Shown: positions 33,101 to 40,481 of the stretch, piece by piece
Layout of the letters: each line of letters starts with the position of its first letter
How positions within the stretch are numbered: the first letter of the stretch is position 1
Assembly (NCBI GenBank): GCA_017454485.1
Contig: JAFTCX010000042.1
Location: 32,178-96,177, forward strand
DNA: 64,000 bases
Direction of reading: 5' to 3'
Source of the DNA: Clostridia bacterium
Lineage (GTDB): Bacteria > Bacillota > Clostridia > Oscillospirales > Acutalibacteraceae
Notes under the pieces: generated by a model
What the model was told of the DNA's origin: nothing
Database searches by the model: none
What the model saw: the letters and a program-made list of their open reading frames with translations, nothing else
Translations under genes and position numbers: made by a program

Positions 33101-35823
33101 CAGGTCGCAGCCTTTTTCAGATATTTCGCGTCAACAACTTCCTGATCGAACACATGCGCCGCAGGGGTAAAGGTCGCGCGGATGGTGTTGTTGGCGGTAA
33201 TGTTTGTGTAGCCGCTCCAGCCGTCAAAGGTGTAATGGTTGGCGGCGTCGGTGTAGTTTTCCTGCGCTGCAGGCGGCGTAGCGTCAGAGCCGTGCACAAC
33301 GTTTTCACGCTTCAGCTCGTTGCCGTCTTTATCCTCGAAAATGACGGTGTAGCTGTTGAGCGCTGCCGCGCCGAGGGAGATAGTGGTGTCGCCGGTCACA
33401 TTCGGCACGGTGTAGGTAATCACGTTGCCGGATTTTGACGTTGTCACCGCTGCGGCATTCGTTGCCGTGCAAGTTGGCGCAGCGCTGTTCGTGTAGCCGT
33501 CAGCGAGTGTAATTGCAAAGGTGACGCTGCCGCCGTGGTTGACCGTCGCTGCCGGAGCCGTCGACACTGTGTAGCCGGTGCCGTTAAAGTCTTGGGCCAC
33601 AGTGTAGCTGTTGAGCGCTGCCGCGCCGAGGGAGATGGTGGTGTCGCCGTTCACGTTCGGCACAGTGTAGGTAATCACATTGCCGGATTTTGACGTTGTC
33701 ACCGCTGCGGCATTCGTTGCCGTGCAGGACGGCACAGCGCTGTTCGTGTAGCCGTCGGCAAGTGTAATTGCAAACGTGACGGTGCCGCCGTGGTTGACAG
33801 TAGACGCCGGTTGGGTTGTCACGGTGTAGCCGGTTTGGTCAGGGTTAAAGGTGACGTCGTAGGTGTTGATGGCAAACGTCAAATTGACCGAAACGTCGTT
33901 GTCAATGATGGTGCCTTCGAGCGCTCCATCAGCGCTGACATAATGATAGCCGTCCATCGGCGTCGGAACAATCCGGTAGGTCGAATGCGAAAGATGAGTT
34001 TCATTGTAGGTATACATGTCATCCGCAACGTTTTCGTTGTTGACGTAAACGCTGAACATGCCCATGCCACTGGCAACATCGACTTTCAGCGTGTGCGAAT
34101 CCTGCGACCATCTTGCCCACAGCGTTGAAGCCGCCGCCTTGTCCCAGGCGCGGGCGGAGGAGCCGTCGGCATTGTAATACTTTGTGCCGCCCGTTTGCGC
34201 GCTCGTATCATAATAGCCCGCAAAGGTATAGCCGGCTCTGGTCGGCATGGTTGTCGACGGCATTGCCGCATCATACGTCGCAGTTACAGAAGTTGTACCG
34301 CCCGTGCCGTCGTTCTTGTTGAGGGTGACTTCATATGTGTTCGGCGTCCAGTTCAGATCATATGTCACGGAGCTGACCGGACCGGACTCGCCCTCTGTAA
34401 CCACATACGCGTTCATCGGCGCAGTGACACCCGCCGTGTAGCTGTCGCCCGGAGCAAGCTGGCCGGAGCTGCCAGTCCAGTTGCCGTTGCGCGTATAGCC
34501 GGTTTTGCTTGGGTTCGGGGTCGTGAAAGCATTATTATAAGTTTTGGTAATGGTTTGATTCGTACCGGAATCCATGTCAACAAATTTGGATTCAAAGGTG
34601 AACATGTTGCGATACCAGGAGTGAATCGGATATTTATAAGTGGTGCTGCCGATTTTCACGCCCCAGGTGTTGGTGACAAGCTGGGCAGAGGAAATGGTTG
34701 CCGCGCCGTTTTGCATTTGCGCAGAAGACCACTGGGTTGCCTGTGCGCGGTTGTTTGAGGACGAGATCGTACCGCAGTTATAGCTGCCCGAATAAGAAGT
34801 GGTTGAACTCCAGCCGATATCATAGGCATAACCGGAACCCGCACTGATGGTACCGGCGTTATAAAGATTATTGAAATATCCTCCATAAGCTTTATTGACA
34901 TCGACATCACCAATTCCGGAAAAAATGCCGCCGGACATATAGTTGGACGAAACACTGCCCCAGTTGAAGCACTGGTCAAACTCGGAGTTGCCTGATTCTG
35001 TAATATAGCCGATGATGCCTCCGTCATAGTTGCCACCGCTGACCGCGCCGGCGTTCCAGCACTGCTTGAACCACACCCAGTCGGCGGTTGTTCCGCTGTT
35101 TCCAACAAAGTAACCGAACAGTCCCCCGGCTGTGCCGCTGTTGTTCGAAGTAACAGCACCAACATTATAACAATGGACAAACGTTTCGCCAACCTTTGAT
35201 TCGGAATAGCCAACAAGTCCACCGCTGTATCTACCGCTGACACTTGCCGCGTTCGAGCAGTCGTTCATGTTCAGTGCTCCGCTGCTGAGCTCTCTATATT
35301 GACCGACAAGGCCGCCGACGTGTGAGCTGCCTGAAACAGAGCCGCTGCGGATATGGACATTATTCATCGTCAGAGTGCCGCTGACGTAACCGACTACAGC
35401 GGCAATATCATCGGCAGAGACGCTCACATTCACATTGTCCATATTCAAATTTTGAATCACGGCACTGCCGGTGACATAGCGAAACAGACCCTGATACTGC
35501 CCGCTGCCGGTCAAGGTAAAGTTTTTTATGGTATGTCCCTTGCCGTCAAAGGTACCGCAAAAGCCATTGTTTGCGTTATTCTGCACACCGTTCATGTTTT
35601 GCCCGCTAAGGTCAATGTCCGCACTCAGCTCAACGGTTTTTCCGCTGTAGCTGTTGCCGCCCGCAACATTTTGCAAAAAGGTTTTGAGCTGCGCCGCCGT
35701 TGAAATCGTCAAATCCGCCGCGCTCGCCGTCGGCGCAACAAACACCCACGCGCTCAGCAGCATGAGCACGCTCAAAAGCACCGACAAAGAGCGCTTTCCT
35801 GTTCGTTTCATTCGTTTCATCAT
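30154..35823 (-). CDS. Giant secreted/surface protein (~1890 aa): GLUG-like repeats, Listeria/Bacteroides-type (Flg_new) repeats, Ig-like tandem repeats and a long Cys/His-rich C-terminal half
   Basis: AAGGAGG RBS 6 nt before the ATG at 35823. Signal peptide MMKRMKRTGKRSLSVLLSVLMLLSAWVFVAPTASA. GGLVG/GGLFG/GGIIG repeats. TYEVTLNKNDGTGG...AGYTFAGYY...LWARW. Thirteen CxxC pairs. Own promoter and terminator. Confidence 0.85.
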   Translation of the reverse strand: MMKRMKRTGKRSLSVLLSVLMLLSAWVFVAPTASAADLTISTAAQLKTFLQNVAGGNSYSGKTVELSADIDLSGQNMNGVQNNANNGFCGTFDGKGHTIKNFTLTGSGQYQGLFRYVTGSAVIQNLNMDNVNVSVSADDIAAVVGYVSGTLTMNNVHIRSGSVSGSSHVGGLVGQYRELSSGALNMNDCSNAASVSGRYSGGLVGYSESKVGETFVHCYNVGAVTSNNSGTAGGLFGYFVGNSGTTADWVWFKQCWNAGAVSGGNYDGGIIGYITESGNSEFDQCFNWGSVSSNYMSGGIFSGIGDVDVNKAYGGYFNNLYNAGTISAGSGYAYDIGWSSTTSYSGSYNCGTISSSNNRAQATQWSSAQMQNGAATISSAQLVTNTWGVKIGSTTYKYPIHSWYRNMFTFESKFVDMDSGTNQTITKTYNNAFTTPNPSKTGYTRNGNWTGSSGQLAPGDSYTAGVTAPMNAYVVTEGESGPVSSVTYDLNWTPNTYEVTLNKNDGTGGTTSVTATYDAAMPSTTMPTRAGYTFAGYYDTSAQTGGTKYYNADGSSARAWDKAAASTLWARWSQDSHTLKVDVASGMGMFSVYVNNENVADDMYTYNETHLSHSTYRIVPTPMDGYHYVSADGALEGTIIDNDVSVNLTFAINTYDVTFNPDQTGYTVTTQPASTVNHGGTVTFAITLADGYTNSAVPSCTATNAAAVTTSKSGNVITYTVPNVNGDTTISLGAAALNSYTVAQDFNGTGYTVSTAPAATVNHGGSVTFAITLADGYTNSAAPTCTATNAAAVTTSKSGNVITYTVPNVTGDTTISLGAAALNSYTVIFEDKDGNELKRENVVHGSDATPPAAQENYTDAANHYTFDGWSGYTNITANNTIRATFTPAAHVFDQEVVDAKYLKKAATCTEKASYFKSCVCGYKGTETFESGEPLDHNYVNHAAQEPTCTAVGWAAYQTCTRCDYSTYVEIPATGHTYAEPAATDWTWTPNGDSYNVSVSVSCVKGDDTQTLTASMEKTADVPAQHLENGHKTFKATATIGDQTFTATRTDTINAEGHSMQFFAAVSGVDCEHYGTVAYYHCSGCNKNFADEQGKTELTELSDDTFGAHQLGAQTAAVAATKCTETGTVAYYTCTVCEKHFSDDAAQNELSDLSDGTPGPHIFSVALYDETNHWKKCANCNETTGLAAHSFSAPPSWSEWTEDHKTTVTFQCDDCAYTVQPEVTVSPDAHEATCTAAGYTVYTATVTFGGTTYTNAITQTVPGEAATGHTYGEPAKADWTWTVNGESYNVTVTVQCVKGDDTKTLTASVEKTADVPVQHLVDGYKTFTATATIGTQTFTDTKTDTIPAPGHSMTFVGAVPAVNCMSFGTVAHYHCSVCGKDYADESGETELASLSDNTRGPHNFSVLQSDENEHWYECANGCGEFDGKAAHSGGTATCTAKAICTICNASYGDFDYHNHSTNETKLKNQKDAGYTCTGYTGDTYCVACDHLVSEGIVRDRLNINENAVYTNAQTIKSAAEEDPMKYKESDIEALDEKLGALNTALSIDDNEAAVNTALNELAALLETIEELQYFTVTFKLDDEIIKEEPVISGESATAPTQQALINNGETHQRFSGWIGNYTNVSADVTITGSYIDEPHTWVDGTVTKQATCMEEGAQNQSCACGATNVKTLAIDPENHTGNNSTSQANVIPASCEAGGSYDEVVICECCVTLSSTPHTTPSLGHSFVNYVSNNDATCEEDGTETAKCERCEATDTRTVAGSAIGHAWSDWTVTKAATCTAAGSRTRTCANDAAHVQTEVIPMIDHVDVNNDDKCDVCGRTLGKHHHSDSDFDNVCDDCGQTIDTGFRCSMCNSNAKMQASSNNGFVKFVYTVVHLFVHAFQSFRNFVVR
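31620..32025 (-). repeat. Intragenic duplicated ~135-codon module, copy 2 (GHTYGEPAKADWTWTVNGESYNVTVTVQCVKGDDTKTLTAS...HYHCSVCGKDY...GPH)
   Basis: Collinear with copy 1 at the protein level, with many identical residues by eye. The DNA has diverged. Confidence 0.75.
32500..32905 (-). repeat. Intragenic duplicated ~135-codon module, copy 1 (GHTYAEPAATDWTWTPNGDSYNVSVSVSCVKGDDTQTLTAS...YYHCSGCNKNF...GAH)
   Basis: See copy 2. The offset between the copies is about 880 bp. Confidence 0.75.
33347..33856 (-). repeat. Two tandem 255-bp (85-codon) repeats inside the giant gene
   Basis: GTGTAGCTGTTGAGCGCTGCCGCGCCGAGGGAGAT... recurs at 33347 and 33602. There are about a dozen substitutions in the first ~190 bp. 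Encodes ...GYTV.T.PA.TVNHGG.VTFAITLADGYTNSA.P.CTATNAAAVTTSKSGNVITYTVPNV.GDTTISLGAAAL. Confidence 0.9.
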
Positions 35824-35855
35824 AAGTATCCTCCTTACCATATGAATACAGTCTA

Positions 35856-35884
35856 ATTTTACCACCTGTTTTTGCAAATGTCAA
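35856..35884 (-). promoter_or_regulatory. SigmaA-type promoter of the giant gene (TTGACA-17 nt-TAAAAT with TGg extended -10)
   Basis: Reverse complement of 35879..35884 is TTGACA and of 35856..35861 is TAAAAT. Lies between the upstream terminator and the RBS. Confidence 0.55.
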
Positions 35885-35926
35885 CAAAACATTTTCAAAA
35901 TCACTGATTTTTCTTGTAAAAAGCGC

Positions 35927-35960
35927 AAAAACGGGAACCGTTCGTTTGAACCGTTCCCGT
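35927..35960 (-). terminator. Rho-independent terminator after the alpha/beta hydrolase gene
   Basis: 13-bp stem (ACGGGAACGGTTC / GAACCGTTCCCGT, one mismatch) with a 4-nt loop, followed on the minus strand by TTTTGCGCTTTTT. Confidence 0.7.
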
Positions 35961-35980
35961 TGGGATGCTTTCCGAAATTA

Positions 35981-36781
35981 TTATTGAAAAAACCGCAGCA
36001 GTCTTGTCTTGTAATCCGGCGCGGTGTCGTATGCCGCGTGGCCGCAGCCCTCATACATGTGCAGCTCCACATCTCCGCGTTCTTCCAACGCCTGCGCAAT
36101 TTCGACGGAAGCGTCACCGCCGAGCACAGCGTCGTCCTTTGCGCCGAGCACCAGCACGGGACAGCGGATTTCGCGCAGCCGCGCGGTGAAATCAAAGCCG
36201 TTCATCGCGCCGGCAAGAACTGCAAAGCGGTCAAATTCGTCATCCGATACGCCTTTTCCGGCGCTCAAAAGCTGATCGCGGACAGCTTGAAACACCGCCG
36301 CGGGATACACAAGCTCACCAAAGGAAAGATAAAGCTTTTCGCCGTCCTTTTCCCTTGCCGCCTGCACCCAGGGCGCCAAACGCTGCGCGTGGTCGGGCGT
36401 GATGCGTGCGGCCGTGGAGCCGAGCGCAAGTTTTTTTACAAGAAGCGGATACTGCGCGGCAAGCACCATAGCGATCATGCCGCCCTGCGACGCGCCGAAC
36501 AGACAAACGTCTTTCAACCCAAGCGCCGCCATCACTTTTGCCGTGTCGTGCGCCATGTCGTAAACGGAATACGTCTGCGGCAGCGTCTGACGCCGATCAA
36601 AAACATAGATCGTAAACGCCTCGGTCAGCGGCGCATAAGCCGCAGCTACGTCGTCGGCAAAAAGCATCACGCTTTGCACGCTCAGCCCGGGCAGAATGAC
36701 AAGCGTCTGTTTGCCGCGCCCGAACGAGAAAAAGCGCATGGTGATCTCATCGACGCAGACTTGCTCCACTTGCGTTTTCAT
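35981..36781 (-). CDS. Alpha/beta-fold hydrolase
   Basis: 266 aa. Nucleophile elbow GASQGG, C-terminal GCGHAAY (catalytic His region), LVILPG oxyanion region. Confidence 0.8.
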   Translation of the reverse strand: MKTQVEQVCVDEITMRFFSFGRGKQTLVILPGLSVQSVMLFADDVAAAYAPLTEAFTIYVFDRRQTLPQTYSVYDMAHDTAKVMAALGLKDVCLFGASQGGMIAMVLAAQYPLLVKKLALGSTAARITPDHAQRLAPWVQAAREKDGEKLYLSFGELVYPAAVFQAVRDQLLSAGKGVSDDEFDRFAVLAGAMNGFDFTARLREIRCPVLVLGAKDDAVLGGDASVEIAQALEERGDVELHMYEGCGHAAYDTAPDYKTRLLRFFQ

Positions 36782-36796
36782 TCTTTCGCTCCCCTG

Positions 36797-37258
36797 TCAG
36801 ACGTTCCAAGTTTTGCGCATCGACAAAATATTCTTCCCGTTTTCGCGCCGGTAGCTGACCGCGTCCATGGTTTTCTTTACCAGAAAAACGCCAAGGCCGC
36901 CGATTTGACGCGATTCGGCGTCGAGCGTAGTATCGGGGTCGGCTTTTGCGAGCGGGTCGTAAGCTTGTCCCTCATCGGAAAACACAAGCGTTACCTCGCC
37001 GTTTTTGCCGCTCAGTTCAATTTGCGCCGTTCCTGTCTTGTCGCCGTAAGCATAGCTTGCAATGTTGACAAATACCTCTTCCACGCAAAGATCAATTTGC
37101 ATTTGCGTTTTCATCGGGCAGTCGTGCGCTTCAAGAAAGCTGTCCACAAAATCGTTGACAAGCAAGAGTGCATCGCGTTTTGCGTCCACCGTCAGACTCT
37201 TATAATCTTCCGCATTCGATACATCGCCTGCAGATGCATTCATTTTATCCCAGAGCAT
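36797..37258 (-). CDS. Anti-sigma-factor-type serine kinase (RsbW/SpoIIAB-like HATPase)
   Basis: EEVFVNIASYAY (N box), SDEGQAYDP and IGGLGVFLVKK (G boxes). The ATG at 37258 lies 8 nt after AGGAGA; the track start at 37312 has no RBS. Confidence 0.75.
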   Translation of the reverse strand: MLWDKMNASAGDVSNAEDYKSLTVDAKRDALLLVNDFVDSFLEAHDCPMKTQMQIDLCVEEVFVNIASYAYGDKTGTAQIELSGKNGEVTLVFSDEGQAYDPLAKADPDTTLDAESRQIGGLGVFLVKKTMDAVSYRRENGKNILSMRKTWNV

Positions 37259-37330
37259 ATCCAAACTCTCCTGCGGTTTACCGCTGCCGCTGCAAAAGCA
37301 GCAGCATTCCATGGTTGCATATTTACAAAA

Positions 37331-38515
37331 TCAGAACGAAAGGCTGTCAAGCTTCGGCACCAGTTCGCAAAGCGTCTTTTTGCAATGTTCAACCAGCTTT
37401 GCCTTATAAGCTTCGTCTTCCTTCGCCTTGCGGTAGGTGCGGCGCAGCAAACGCGCAAAGCAAATGACCGCAGATTTTTCCTCAATTCCGCGCAGGAACG
37501 CTTCGTCTTCGGTGTCGAAATAATACTTGAGCGTCGCCTTCCAGAACTGCTGCGCCTGGTCATACGGGATGCCGAGGAATGTTAAGACGTTGTTTTTGTC
37601 AATGCAGGAAAAGCCTACGTAAGCCGCATAGATCGCCGAAAACTCAAAGATTGGGTGACCCATGGCGAGGGTATCCATGTCGATGAGCAGATTTTCGCCG
37701 TTTTGCTGCATGATGTTTTTGATGTGATAATCGCCGTGCAGCATATTGTTGGTTTCGGGCACGGCTTTTACAAGCGCAACCAGCTTTTCGCCCACCTCCT
37801 GCGGAAGATGATCGCGGCAATATTCCGCCCAAACGAGCGCTTCTGCTTTTTTATCGGGCAGCTCGCCGGGTTTGAGCATTGTGCTGTGCATGGTTTTCAA
37901 AATATCCACACTCGCCTTTGCAAGCTCGTCCGTTTTGGAGGGATCGGCGATCATCAGCTTGGCAAAGGATTTTGCGTTGAGCAGCTCAAAGACAGAGCCG
38001 TAAAGGTCGCCGACCTGCACAACGTCATACGGAATCGCGGTCGGAACACCCATCACAAACGCCTTGCGCGCAAGTTCGCGTTCGTTGTGGATTTCTTCGA
38101 GCGCATCATGGTTTTTATACACCTTCACAATGGTGTCAGCGTCAATGCGGTATACCTTGCCGTTGGCGCCTTCGCCGATGACCTCACAGCCGTCCACAGA
38201 CAGCTTACGGTAGGCTTTGGCGATGTCCATCATCTCGGTAAAACCGGTCATGTCAAAGATCTCATAGACGTCGGAAGAAACGTTGATGATTTTGGTGTCC
38301 TTGTTGGCCTTTTTCAAACGCAAGACCACGCGAAGACCTGCGCTGGAAATGTATTCAAGCTTTTCGGCGTCAAGAATGACCGCACCGGTATAGCCGTCTG
38401 TATGTGCCCTGATCTGCGCTTCGGCGTCGGCGGCGTTGTTCGAATCAATGCGTCCCGCAATGAAGACGGTGAGCGCATCCGGCTGTTGCTTTGCTGTGAT
38501 TTGAATCATAATCAT
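37331..38515 (-). CDS. Fusion protein: N-terminal STAS (anti-sigma antagonist) domain plus C-terminal APH/choline-kinase-like phosphotransferase domain
   Basis: STAS part: LTVFIAGRIDSNNA...LDAEKLEYISSAGLRVVL...VYEIFDMTGF. Kinase part: GEGANGKVYRI, VKVYK, HGDYHIKNIM, IDMDTL. Confidence 0.8.
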   Translation of the reverse strand: MIMIQITAKQQPDALTVFIAGRIDSNNAADAEAQIRAHTDGYTGAVILDAEKLEYISSAGLRVVLRLKKANKDTKIINVSSDVYEIFDMTGFTEMMDIAKAYRKLSVDGCEVIGEGANGKVYRIDADTIVKVYKNHDALEEIHNERELARKAFVMGVPTAIPYDVVQVGDLYGSVFELLNAKSFAKLMIADPSKTDELAKASVDILKTMHSTMLKPGELPDKKAEALVWAEYCRDHLPQEVGEKLVALVKAVPETNNMLHGDYHIKNIMQQNGENLLIDMDTLAMGHPIFEFSAIYAAYVGFSCIDKNNVLTFLGIPYDQAQQFWKATLKYYFDTEDEAFLRGIEEKSAVICFARLLRRTYRKAKEDEAYKAKLVEHCKKTLCELVPKLDSLSF

Positions 38516-39087
38516 TCTCCTTCATAGCCGTCAAACACGGCGTGATAAAGTGCATTGTATTCCTGATAAGCCGCCGTGTCCGCAAGCGGAGAAAGCAGCT
38601 CCAGAATTGTTTTATAGTACCATTTCTGATCGAGCGGGTCCTTGTTGTTGAACCGGTCAAACACCTTGACGCCCAAACGGTCGTGGTCACGCTTGAGTGC
38701 GCGCATGTTGGCGAGCTTGTCCCCCAGCCAGAGCATCAGGGCTGCGGGGTCATTCGCGTTTTTAAGCAGCTCAAGCGACTCCTCCTTGCGCACGCGCCAT
38801 GTATCCTTCGGCGAAAGCGCCGGCCGTTTGTTTTCGGTCTCATGCATCACCAGCGTATGTACACGCGGTCCGAACGTTTGCAGAATGTCCGCCTCAGTGG
38901 TGTCCGTGTCTTCCACAGTATCGTGCAGCACCGCGGCGGCAAGAATTTCAAGATCGCCGGTCAGCGTGCTGACGATGGACGCATCCTCCAAAGGATGCAG
39001 GATAAACGGTGAGCCGTCTTTGCGCGTTTGACCCGCATGTGCGTCCACCGCAAAGCGGATTGCCCGCTCCAAAACAGTATATTGCAA
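38512..39087 (-). CDS. HD-domain small alarmone ((p)ppGpp) hydrolase-like protein
   Basis: AHAGQTRKDGSPFILHPLE...AAVLHDTVEDT is typical of the RelA/SpoT hydrolase domain, at 191 aa. TTG start 9 nt after AAGGAG. 4-nt overlap with the next gene. Confidence 0.78.
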   Translation of the reverse strand: MQYTVLERAIRFAVDAHAGQTRKDGSPFILHPLEDASIVSTLTGDLEILAAAVLHDTVEDTDTTEADILQTFGPRVHTLVMHETENKRPALSPKDTWRVRKEESLELLKNANDPAALMLWLGDKLANMRALKRDHDRLGVKVFDRFNNKDPLDQKWYYKTILELLSPLADTAAYQEYNALYHAVFDGYEGE

Positions 39088-39160
39088 GTATATCAGCTCC
39101 TTTAAAATGTATTATAACATAGTTCAAGCAGAATATCAACACTTTAATTCGTCCTTCCTC

Positions 39161-39188
39161 TTGTATTTTTTTGCGCAATGGTTATAAT
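39161..39188 (+). promoter_or_regulatory. Candidate promoter for the M16 peptidase-proBA unit (TTGTAT-16 nt-TATAAT)
   Basis: Motifs at 39161..39166 and 39183..39188. Confidence 0.45.
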
Positions 39189-39221
39189 AGAAAGCGAATG
39201 AATCATCATGGAGAAATGCGC

Positions 39222-40481
39222 ATGGAACAATGGACATTACAAAACGGGCTGCGCGTGCTGTTTGACGAGCAAAGCCACCTGCATTCCGCAACGGTCGGCT
39301 TATGGGTCGCATCGGGCAGCGTCAACGAAACGGCACAGACCAACGGCATCTCGCACTTCATTGAGCATATCGTGTTCAAAGGCACCGACGGGCTTTCCGC
39401 CTTTGACATCGCGCGCGCAATGGACGCCATCGGCGCTTCGGTCAATGCCTACACCACAAAGGAATACACCTTTTTCTATGTGCGCGCACTCTCCCACCGC
39501 ATTCATGACGCTGCGGAACTTCTTTTTGACATGGTGCTGCATCCGAAGCTTGATGAAAATGACATCGACACCGAGCGCGGCGTAATATTAGAAGAGATCG
39601 CCATGTGCGAGGATGACCCGGCAGACGTCTGCTATGAAGCGAACGAAAGCGCCGTTTTCGCCTGCTCGCCTCTCTCGCTGCAAATACTCGGCACGAAAGA
39701 GAGTGTCAGTCGGCTGGAAAAAAGCGATTTTCTCGCCCACCGCGCCGCATTTTACACGCCGGAGCGAATGGTCATCGGCATCGGCGGCAAATTTGACAAA
39801 GCCGAAATGCAAACGCTGATCGAAACGGCGTTCGGCGCTCTTTCCTGCAAAAACAATCCGCTGACGCCCTGCATCCCGCAGTTTCATCGGCACATCACGC
39901 TGCTGAAACGCTCGTTTGAGCAAACGCATCTGATGCTCTGCTTTCCGGGCGTTCCCCTGCGGCACAGCGATCTTTACACATTGCAGGTGCTGATGTTTTT
40001 GCTCGGCACAGGCTCGTCCTCACAGCTTTGGCAGTGTCTGCGCGAAGAACGCGGTCTTGTCTATAATGTCGACGCCTGGCTGGGCCGCTTCCTTTCCGCT
40101 GGGTATATCGCCGTTTCCATGTCCCTTTCCCCGGACACACAGCAGCAGGCGCTTGAAGAGACAAAGTGCATCATCTGCACGCTTGGCGAAACCATAGACG
40201 AGGCTGCGCTTTGCGCCGCAAAGGAAAAACTCACGTCATCGCTGATCATGCATCGGGAGCAGCCGCATTCCAAGCTTTCCTCCCTCGGACACGACCTTTT
40301 GATGTTCGGCGATTGCACCGAGGACGAAGAGATCATCGCCGCCATCCGTGCGGTGACGCTGTCCGATGTGCAGCGTGCGGCAAAAGATTATTTACGGCTT
40401 TCATCCGCCGCACTCACCGCAGTCGGCACAACAAAAGAGGAAGCTTTTTACCGCGAAATCCTACAAATACAGGAGAAGTAA
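39222..40481 (+). CDS. M16 (pitrilysin/insulinase) family zinc peptidase
   Basis: Inverted zinc motif HFIEH followed by FKGT. The ATG at 39222 follows GGAGA. Confidence 0.8.
   Translation: MEQWTLQNGLRVLFDEQSHLHSATVGLWVASGSVNETAQTNGISHFIEHIVFKGTDGLSAFDIARAMDAIGASVNAYTTKEYTFFYVRALSHRIHDAAELLFDMVLHPKLDENDIDTERGVILEEIAMCEDDPADVCYEANESAVFACSPLSLQILGTKESVSRLEKSDFLAHRAAFYTPERMVIGIGGKFDKAEMQTLIETAFGALSCKNNPLTPCIPQFHRHITLLKRSFEQTHLMLCFPGVPLRHSDLYTLQVLMFLLGTGSSSQLWQCLREERGLVYNVDAWLGRFLSAGYIAVSMSLSPDTQQQALEETKCIICTLGETIDEAALCAAKEKLTSSLIMHREQPHSKLSSLGHDLLMFGDCTEDEEIIAAIRAVTLSDVQRAAKDYLRLSSAALTAVGTTKEEAFYREILQIQEK

Follow-up and report, generated by a model that had tools for sequence, protein, structure and literature searches.

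The window, by which we mean the whole stretch of 64,000 nucleotides from Clostridia bacterium assembly GCA_017454485.1, carries at positions 35981-39087 four minus-strand open reading frames (ORFs), which fill this interval according to the ORF calls. In the order of transcription they encode a protein with the HD_4 domain of RelA/SpoT-type hydrolases, a protein in which an N-terminal STAS domain is fused to a kinase of the APH/choline-kinase fold (STAS-APH), an RsbW-like protein with a HATPase_c_2 domain, and an alpha/beta hydrolase. The gene set stands behind a near-consensus promoter of the sigma-70 type with an extended -10 element (39111-39139, minus strand; TTGATA-17 nt-TATAAT plus TG extension, 11 of 12 consensus matches), which leaves a leader of about 17 nt between the promoter-derived start and the HD_4 start codon. 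At the other end lies an intrinsic terminator (35927-35960, minus strand), in which a T-run follows a GC-rich stem of 10 bp with a single mismatch; the hairpin folds at -26.6 kcal/mol (z = -4.69) and none of 200 shuffled sequences was equally stable. It was missed by a simple consensus scan because of the single G.G mismatch in its stem. An initial annotation of this DNA had described four co-directional genes ending at a strong terminator, and both the coordinates and the hairpin fold agree with this.

The genes are separated by -4 or +2, about 72 and 15 nt, respectively. The first spacing takes two values because there are two candidate ATG codons for STAS-APH. The ATGA overlap of 4 nt proposed initially does exist, with an ATG at 38515, but a second ATG at 38509 has a better-spaced GGAG and yields a protein of 392 aa, the length of nearly all homologues, making it the more likely start and replacing the overlap with a 2-nt gap. 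The two genes appear to be tightly coupled whichever start holds, and we read 35981-39087 as a single promoter-to-terminator unit, with co-transcription of its four genes predicted from the sequence. Control by a riboswitch or leader was rejected, as 35700-39400 gave no Rfam match (E <= 0.1) and the leader is so short.

The fusion gene (37331-38509, minus strand; 392 aa, or 394 aa from the alternative ATG) has matches to the Pfam STAS and APH models and was also modelled with AlphaFold2 (predicted local distance difference test, pLDDT, 94.3; predicted TM-score, pTM, 0.81). Its STAS domain, approximately residues 1-100 (38210-38509), is of the SpoIIAA/RsbV type and exceeds the cut-offs of both Pfam STAS (3.1e-12) and the anti-sigma-factor antagonist model TIGR00377 (4.4e-15), and a profile of the STAS-APH family matches SpoIIAA structures at 4e-11 to 1.5e-9. 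Ser56 (codon 38342-38344, in the context LEYIS-S56-AGLR) is the predicted phospho-acceptor on the basis of the SpoIIAA alignment and its invariance: in a HMMER alignment to 1th8_B it is matched with the first Ser of the SpoIIAA DSSGL motif, which we take to be the phosphorylated Ser58 of that protein. The kinase domain, residues 105-392 (37334-38197), matches Pfam APH (PF01636) at 4.5e-15, scoring 56.5 bits against a cut-off of 23.2. It contains a G-loop (G112-G117), Lys129 (38123-38125), Glu143, the H258-G-D260-x4-N265 motif (37715-37738) and I276-D277.

In an alignment of 79 diverse homologues with 35-79% identity, Ser56, Gly114, Gly117, Lys129, Glu143, His258-Gly259-Asp260, Asn265 and Ile276-Asp277 are invariant in all 79. 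The initial proposals that the N-terminal domain would model as STAS, that it keeps a SpoIIAA/RsbV-like phospho-acceptor loop and that the kinase catalytic set is intact were thus borne out, the last also in the homologues (K129, E143, HGDxxxxN and IDxD), and all the motifs quoted for the locus were recovered in the translations (EYISSAGLRVVL, GEGANGKVYRI, VKVYK, HGDYHIKNIM, IDMDTL, and GASQGG together with His248). The best structural neighbours of the kinase part found by Foldseek are APH(2''), APH(3') and APH(4), each with a probability of 1.00, capreomycin/viomycin kinase, methylthioribose (MTR) kinase and choline-kinase-family proteins, at 12-17% identity. On the strength of this modelled fold the kinase part would belong to the small-molecule kinase branch. 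The nearest curated model is TIGR02172, a Fibrobacter paralogous APH-like family; as STAS-APH scores 115 bits against its cut-off of 228.2, we consider it to be related to this family and not a member of it.

The third gene encodes an RsbW-like protein of the GHKL Ser-kinase type (36797-37258, minus strand; HATPase_c_2, Pfam 4.2e-25), 153 aa long from an ATG at 37258 and scoring 88.6 bits against the PF13581 cut-off of 27.4. Matches to the RsbW model (1.9e-9) and the SpoIIAB model (1.7e-6) are both below the equivalog cut-offs. The protein has an N box (E60-x5-N), a G1-like motif at D95 and a G2 motif, GGLG, at residue 120, and 14 free-standing orthologues conserve the N and G2 boxes. The RsbW/SpoIIAB-type boxes reported initially stand as far as N and G2 are concerned; the G1 box is degenerate. 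The ORF is open to 37312, that is for 18 more codons upstream (37259-37312; MECCCFCSGSGKPQESLD), and this extension is Cys-rich; since homologues are 132-145 aa long and GGAG precedes the ATG at 37258, it is probably untranslated, and 37258 is the most likely start, not 37312.

The first gene of the unit (38512-39087, minus strand; TTG start) encodes a single-domain RelA/SpoT-type hydrolase of 191 aa resembling small alarmone hydrolases (SAHs). It matches Pfam HD_4 (6.5e-21) and the hydrolase part of TIGR00691 (1.3e-26), aligning with the hydrolase half of RelA/SpoT models, and its matches in the PDB include Lmo0812 (4yf1, 1.3e-20), an SAH (7qoe), Rel/SpoT hydrolase domains and MESH1. The key residues are R22 and K23, H31, H55 and D56, E59 and D60, and the D123-K-L-A-N-M-R motif; in 31 cassette-linked orthologues the catalytic motifs are at least 95% conserved. 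A single HD_4 domain of about 190 aa with the motifs RK...HP, LHD..ED and DKL.N.R is what characterises hydrolase-only RelA/SpoT homologues, and by these motifs the protein is a predicted SAH-type enzyme. The same genome also encodes Rel (735 aa), a small alarmone synthetase (210 aa) and a third small HD_4 protein.

The last gene, encoding an alpha/beta hydrolase of 266 aa (35981-36781, minus strand; Pfam Abhydrolase_1, 9.8e-17), starts 15 nt past the stop codon of the HATPase gene and has its own GGGGAG. The catalytic triad, Ser98 in GASQGG (36488-36490), an Asp at about 216-217 and His248 (36038-36040), is conserved in orthologues, in agreement with the initial assignment of the fold and its catalytic residues. 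Its further labelling as RsbQ-like was not upheld: RsbQ is absent from the 60 best PDB sequence matches (E <= 0.01), there is no adjacent partner of the PP2C/RsbP type, and what is shared is a generic Ser-Asp-His alpha/beta fold. Among solved structures the hydrolase comes closest to Est1, RutD, MCP hydrolases, phthalate monoester hydrolases and macrolide esterases. The genome has one copy of the gene, and full-length orthologues (35-49% identity, E 1e-44 to 1e-86) are found within 5 kb and on the same strand in 8 of 79 related loci, at varying positions and with six changes on the tree of the fusion protein. Because of this recurrence we retain it as a recurrent accessory gene of the cassette, as we call the set of genes linked to STAS-APH.

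STAS-APH is widely distributed. In a word-indexed search for homologues, all 8000 scored candidates were significant, so that there are at least 8000 homologue clusters; all 120 listed matches, at 75-95% identity, carry both STAS and APH domains, and in the sources they are named only "anti-sigma factor antagonist" or "phosphotransferase" and come from Clostridia metagenome-assembled genomes (MAGs). When one genome per species was scanned, at least 572 encoded a relative; most of these are MAGs of Bacillota from rumen and gut, including Oscillospiraceae, Lachnospiraceae, Erysipelotrichaceae and Christensenellales, among others. An even draw from the class recovered STAS-APH in 16 of 399 genomes and 12 of 217 genera, and within the genus of the window a full-length copy is present in 9 of 25 genomes. 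The system is accessory and patchy in distribution. Two MAGs have the STAS-APH frame divided between two ORFs (L068:10004-11200 and L090:9977-11150), which could reflect a frameshift, pseudogene formation or an assembly error.

We examined the neighborhood of the fusion gene in 79 named loci, counting ORFs within 5 kb on the same strand, and in nine further loci from relatives of the window genome. Neighboring ORFs were classified with the window proteins and with the parts of an 844-aa dCache-HAMP-PP2C-HATPase sensor from locus L013. A HATPase_c_2 domain is present in 58 of the 79 loci (73%), either fused to a PP2C sensor (25 loci), fused to the C-terminus of STAS-APH (20 loci; this triple fusion was confirmed with Pfam) or free-standing (15 loci), the three forms adding up to 60 as some loci hold more than one. 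A free STAS protein of about 98 aa is encoded in 44 loci (56%), PP2C in 40 (51%) and HD_4 in 33, in 29 of which it is immediately upstream of the fusion gene; nine loci have none of these four partners. The genetic tie between the fusion and an alarmone-hydrolase-type enzyme claimed for the window thus recurs in relatives. Gene order is highly variable, but the gene set recurs. Among 42 well-flanked loci (at least 4 kb on both sides), HATPase_c_2 is found in 36; ten of these 36 have no free STAS, so that the fused STAS is the sole one in cis, and six of the ten also lack PP2C, which is the composition of the window. A sigma-70-family gene lies within 10 kb in just 3 of the 79 loci and in the operon in none. 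With partners linked across at least 79 diverse genomes and fused to STAS-APH itself in 20 loci, the fusion and the synteny expected from the initial annotation hold in relatives, and the data support a real, conserved partner-switching-type unit that has no sigma factor.

Fusions among other components point in the same direction. In three diverged cassettes a STAS domain is fused N-terminally to HD_4 (297-304 aa; L113:9106-10014, L122:5239-6153 and L123:4066-4959, the latter two 49-50% identical to the first), and each of these genes stands between a sensor-PP2C-HATPase gene and the STAS-APH gene. At L092:6182-7276 STAS is fused to a Cof-type HAD phosphatase (Hydrolase_3, 8.6e-54) within a cassette of STAS, PP2C-HATPase, HD_4 and STAS-APH. 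Since STAS is attached to HD_4 and HAD hydrolases as well, the kinase and its partner hydrolase look like outputs of the switch and not like an antagonist; since most relatives also carry a separate free STAS, STAS-APH seems to be a regulated output enzyme. We regard the attachment of STAS to the kinase and, occasionally, to phosphohydrolases as the weightiest evidence for enzymes as outputs, and on both counts the description of STAS-APH as the antagonist, given initially, is not supported.

Unbiased clustering of neighboring ORFs in the related loci added further partner families. A PHP phosphoesterase (291 aa), for which the best curated model is 3',5'-nucleoside bisphosphate phosphatase (7e-30), followed by RNase RNM, is encoded immediately downstream of the fusion in 13 loci and never together with HD_4. 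In the tree of STAS-APH proteins these loci and the triple fusions form one clade (SH-like approximate likelihood ratio test, SH-aLRT, 98), which lacks HD_4; HD_4 partners are dispersed among the remaining branches. The 13 loci were therefore not accepted as independent support. The remaining families are a MatE transporter with a C-terminal HATPase_c_2 domain (11 loci), DUF218 (5), an SDF symporter with an N-terminal extension (5), a VanX-like M15 dipeptidase (4) and GH3 (4). The MatE-HATPase_c_2 fusions (584 aa; L099:15555-17309 and 10 other related loci) stand beside STAS-APH cassettes and suggest that STAS proteins may also act on a transporter. The symporter, of the sodium:dicarboxylate family (L100:8331-9977 and four other loci), has an N-terminal extension of about 145 aa with no Pfam match, which by eye resembles a degenerate HATPase_c_2 domain. 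In L013, from a relative with 82% identity, the cassette comes at the end of a long run of genes on one strand (L013:189-12095) that includes an FGGY kinase, a WbsX glycosyltransferase, two Metallophos proteins, a type I phosphodiesterase and DUF218, which suggests a phosphoester or cell-envelope theme.

The window carries a natural minimal version of this cassette, with four genes and neither free STAS nor PP2C in cis. Two relatives of the same genus (G001 and G006) have the order HD_4, STAS-APH, free STAS, free HATPase. DNA similarity to them is about 75% over HD_4 and the fusion and 69-75% over the HATPase gene, and does not cover the flanks or the alpha/beta hydrolase gene; conservation of the cassette where flanks are not conserved argues that it is under selection as a unit. 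A free-STAS remnant between the fusion and the RsbW-like gene was considered and rejected, because the gap between the fusion and the HATPase start is only about 72 nt long and DNA homology jumps directly from one to the other, which amounts to a clean absence. There is neither a PP2C gene nor a sigma-70-family (Sigma70_r2) gene on the 105-kb contig of the window (C11). The initial statement that no sigma factor or PP2C lies nearby is therefore true for the whole contig, but as regards PP2C it does not extend to the system, given that PP2C is in cis in the 40 relatives counted above and that an orthologue is encoded elsewhere in the genome. This is a 714-aa dCache-HAMP-PP2C protein on contig C52 (C52:21302-23446, minus strand; locus L031, G000:C52:19832-23404), which has no HATPase tail and is 76% identical over 701 aa to the first 701 residues of the cassette-linked 844-aa sensor of L013. 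The window RsbW-like protein, in turn, is 53% identical to the C-terminal HATPase tail of that sensor. A 290-aa gene (C52:20433-21305) begins within the last 4 nt of the C52 gene, and its product by eye resembles glycerophosphodiester phosphodiesterases.

A free STAS protein encoded on contig C5 is 43-59% identical to cassette-linked free STAS proteins; with an assembly that is 87% complete, an orthologous free STAS may have escaped assembly. There are 11 sigma-70-family genes in the genome, several of them with no known regulator, and it also has a SpoIIAB-SigF pair on contig C53 and a second STAS/HATPase/PP2C set on contig C69. The latter (G000:C69:17835-27934; loci L036 and L030) comprises STAS (98 aa) and HATPase_c_2 (138 aa) genes, followed on the same strand by genes for two ABC exporters (each about 730 aa) and a PP2C of 618 aa; it resembles a further switch of the sigma-less type and may be connected with peptide export. 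As none of the four window proteins has a PADLOC match, an association with anti-phage defence of the CapK/CapS kind was rejected.

Operon structure, domain identities, residue invariance, fold, linkage, fusions and the absence of a sigma partner were all computed here, and on these grounds we think that the unit is probably a reduced copy of a widespread, sigma-independent cassette of the partner-switching type, in which the regulated outputs are enzymes instead of a sigma factor. We infer which protein phosphorylates which, in what direction the kinase is affected, what its substrate is and how kinase and hydrolase are related, modelling the mechanism by analogy on the All4160/HenR/Alr3423 (PMC13555669) and CapK/CapS (PMC13373217) precedents. 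The RsbW-like GHKL kinase would bind the N-terminal STAS domain of STAS-APH and phosphorylate Ser56, and a sensor PP2C, in this genome the unlinked dCache-HAMP-PP2C protein on C52, would remove the phosphate. The phosphorylation state of STAS would then set the activity of the attached APH-fold kinase on a small-molecule hydroxyl. The co-translated HD_4 protein, as a Mn-dependent phosphohydrolase of the SAH type, may be the functional counterpart, either removing the phosphate added by the kinase or hydrolysing (p)ppGpp-like nucleotides in the same response, and the alpha/beta hydrolase may be an optional accessory enzyme of the same pathway.

Several observations weigh against this reading. 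Given the absence of free STAS and PP2C in cis, the window unit is at most a kinase/phosphatase switch and not a demonstrable partner switch, and the C52 PP2C is assigned to it by orthology only. The G1 box of the RsbW-like HATPase is degenerate (DEGQAYD), which makes kinase activity, as opposed to mere binding, a prediction. The fold matches of the kinase part are only 12-17% identical to it. In relatives, about 12% of the well-flanked loci carry STAS-APH alone, indicating that the protein can work with no linked partners, and HD_4 occurs in just 42% of the 79 loci; the exchange of HD_4 for PHP represents approximately one event rather than 13, because the PHP loci form one clade. Finally, a full-text literature search found no paper on a STAS-APH fusion or on the cassette.

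These data also have to be weighed against other explanations. STAS-APH could be an anti-anti-sigma antagonist after all, with the RsbW-like protein serving as the anti-sigma factor of an unlinked sigma factor and the APH domain as an input module similar to the N-terminal domains of RsbR. The above-cut-off match of STAS to the anti-sigma-factor-antagonist superfamily model, the RsbW and SpoIIAB matches of the HATPase_c_2 protein and the unassigned sigma factors of the genome are consistent with this. We nevertheless think it quite unlikely: the RsbW/SpoIIAB matches fall far under the equivalog cut-offs, no sigma gene is found on the contig or in any of the 79 related operons, most cassettes already have a separate free STAS, these cassettes also contain STAS fusions to HD_4 and HAD hydrolases, and invariant kinase residues favour catalysis over mere sensing. 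That the genes are merely adjacent, with no functional link, is very improbable and largely refuted by the synteny and fusion data; although the fusion stands alone in some genomes and flanks are unconserved even within the genus, linkage to the same partners recurs in many families, with variable gene order, natural fusions join every pair of components, and a cassette conserved within unconserved flanks argues for selection on the unit.

Two further explanations concern the substrate of the kinase. The locus could be a stress-inducible island for modification of xenobiotics or antibiotics, in which APH phosphorylates a compound of the aminoglycoside, peptide or macrolide type, the hydrolase serves as esterase or lactonase on compounds of this class, and STAS and HATPase do no more than gate the enzyme. 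We consider this improbable, even though the best structural neighbours of the kinase are APH(2''), APH(3'), APH(4) and the capreomycin/viomycin kinases, the hydrolase weakly matches the macrolide esterases EstX and EstT, the distribution in the class is patchy, and MatE efflux, VanX-like dipeptidases and DUF218 recur nearby. Identity to resistance kinases is as low as stated above and matches to the models of named enzymes are far below their curated cut-offs; the most consistent enzymatic partner is an alarmone-type HD_4 or PHP nucleotide phosphatase instead of efflux or an esterase, the hydrolase being present in just 10% of loci; and conservation across families (about 50% or more) is unusually high for a resistance gene. 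Some APH-fold proteins are protein kinases, and weak catalytic-loop matches to the Ser/Thr protein kinase model PRK11768 (0.0015) and to CotS (7e-4) would fit a YihE/SrkA- or CotS-like kinase acting on HD_4, the free STAS or an unlinked protein in a two-kinase protein-phosphorylation cascade. To this we likewise give little credence, because every strong structural neighbour is a small-molecule kinase, the STAS serine already has a PP2C protein phosphatase to act on it, and three unrelated phosphohydrolase families of the small-molecule type (HD_4, PHP and HAD) recur as partners, which a metabolite cycle fits better.

Beyond the sigma-independent cassette with enzymes as outputs, such a cycle can be formulated more specifically, in a version that we hold tentatively and regard as rather unlikely. 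The cassette would be a sensor-controlled small-molecule phosphorylation cycle, constituting a new alarmone-like signalling system in gut and rumen Bacillota, in which the APH kinase makes a phosphorylated messenger or metabolite and HD_4, PHP or HAD destroys it. To our knowledge, nucleotide 2'/3'-(pyro)phosphates are the substrates of every known relative of the HD_4 and PHP partners, and under this version the product would most plausibly be a nucleotide with a ribose 2'/3'-phosphate. Kinase and hydrolase might then be reciprocally switched through STAS by one PP2C/GHKL pair, with an extracellular ligand sensed by the Cache domain. More generally, the cassette may link an extracellular Cache-type signal to alarmone-type nucleotide chemistry in these bacteria. 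The STAS-APH family is large, highly conserved and unstudied, it yields clean predictions (Ser56 phosphorylation, a kinase substrate and a hydrolase substrate), and the natural fusion proteins of the cassette make biochemical reconstitution simple.

Partner switching is textbook sigma-factor control, and the cassette shares with the Bacillus RsbV-RsbW-RsbU/RsbP and SpoIIAA-SpoIIAB-SpoIIE systems the same three families (STAS with a SpoIIAA-aligned Ser, a HATPase_c_2 GHKL Ser kinase and PP2C) and the same operon style. STAS with its Ser and HATPase_c_2 were found here, whereas a sigma-factor target was not; moreover, the STAS domain is joined to a kinase, many relatives have HATPase_c_2 joined to the PP2C sensor or to STAS-APH, and the window operon contains neither PP2C nor free STAS. 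The stressosome, RsbR-RsbS-RsbT(-RsbX), has a similar set of multidomain STAS, STAS-only, HATPase_c_2 kinase and PP2C proteins. In RsbR, however, STAS is C-terminal and the other domain is a sensor, while in STAS-APH it is N-terminal and the other domain is a kinase that by its motifs is catalytically intact, and the window cassette has no downstream target of the RsbU type. The kinase domain shares with APH(2''), APH(4)-Ia, Cph, MtnK and ChoK the fold, the Brenner motif HGDxxxxN, the metal-binding Asp, the G-loop and the Lys-Glu pair, but differs from them in its 12-17% identity and in an N-terminal STAS domain that we have not seen described for this fold. The HD_4 protein resembles the SAHs Mesh1, RelH and XccSAH (PMC9765508, PMC9293644) in its size and in consisting of a single domain, and it has the full complement of their metal-binding and catalytic motifs. 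The SAHs known so far either are orphan enzymes or counteract toxic alarmone synthetases as antitoxins (PMC9765508, PMC9293644), and none has been described as fused to, or in an operon with, partner-switching parts, whereas the HD_4 gene of the window is in such an operon.

The principle of a STAS-fused effector under GHKL/PP2C control and independent of a sigma factor is already known, although it was only in 2026 that such effectors were shown to be directly switched, in the Anabaena glycosyltransferase (PMC13555669) and the CapS repressor (PMC13373217). CapK, a GHKL protein resembling anti-sigma-factor kinases, phosphorylates the STAS domain of the CapS fusion and thereby changes the activity of its output, a wHTH DNA-binding domain controlling immune operons (PMC13373217). 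The logic of GHKL protein and STAS fusion is shared, but the output in the window is catalytic and there are no matches to defence-system models. The closest precedent is All4160 of Anabaena sp. PCC 7120, a STAS-glycosyltransferase of polysaccharide synthesis that operates with HenR and Alr3423 and no sigma factor; genetics and in vitro assays indicate that phosphorylation of STAS by the RsbW-type kinase inhibits the enzyme and that SpoIIE/PP2C activates it, in vivo phosphorylation not having been shown directly, and its authors consider the architecture nearly confined to cyanobacteria (PMC13555669). As in that module, a STAS-bearing enzyme occurs with no sigma factor: STAS is fused to a catalytic domain, an RsbW-type kinase gene is adjacent, and PP2C is encoded in the genome and in the cassettes of relatives, so that phospho-control is predicted for the window. 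The output is an APH-fold kinase in Bacillota instead of a sugar transferase, and the cassette differs further in its dedicated phosphohydrolase partner, its frequent second, free STAS and the membrane Cache/HAMP sensors on its phosphatase. If our interpretation is true, the cassette extends STAS-effector switching to an enzyme pair of kinase and phosphohydrolase.

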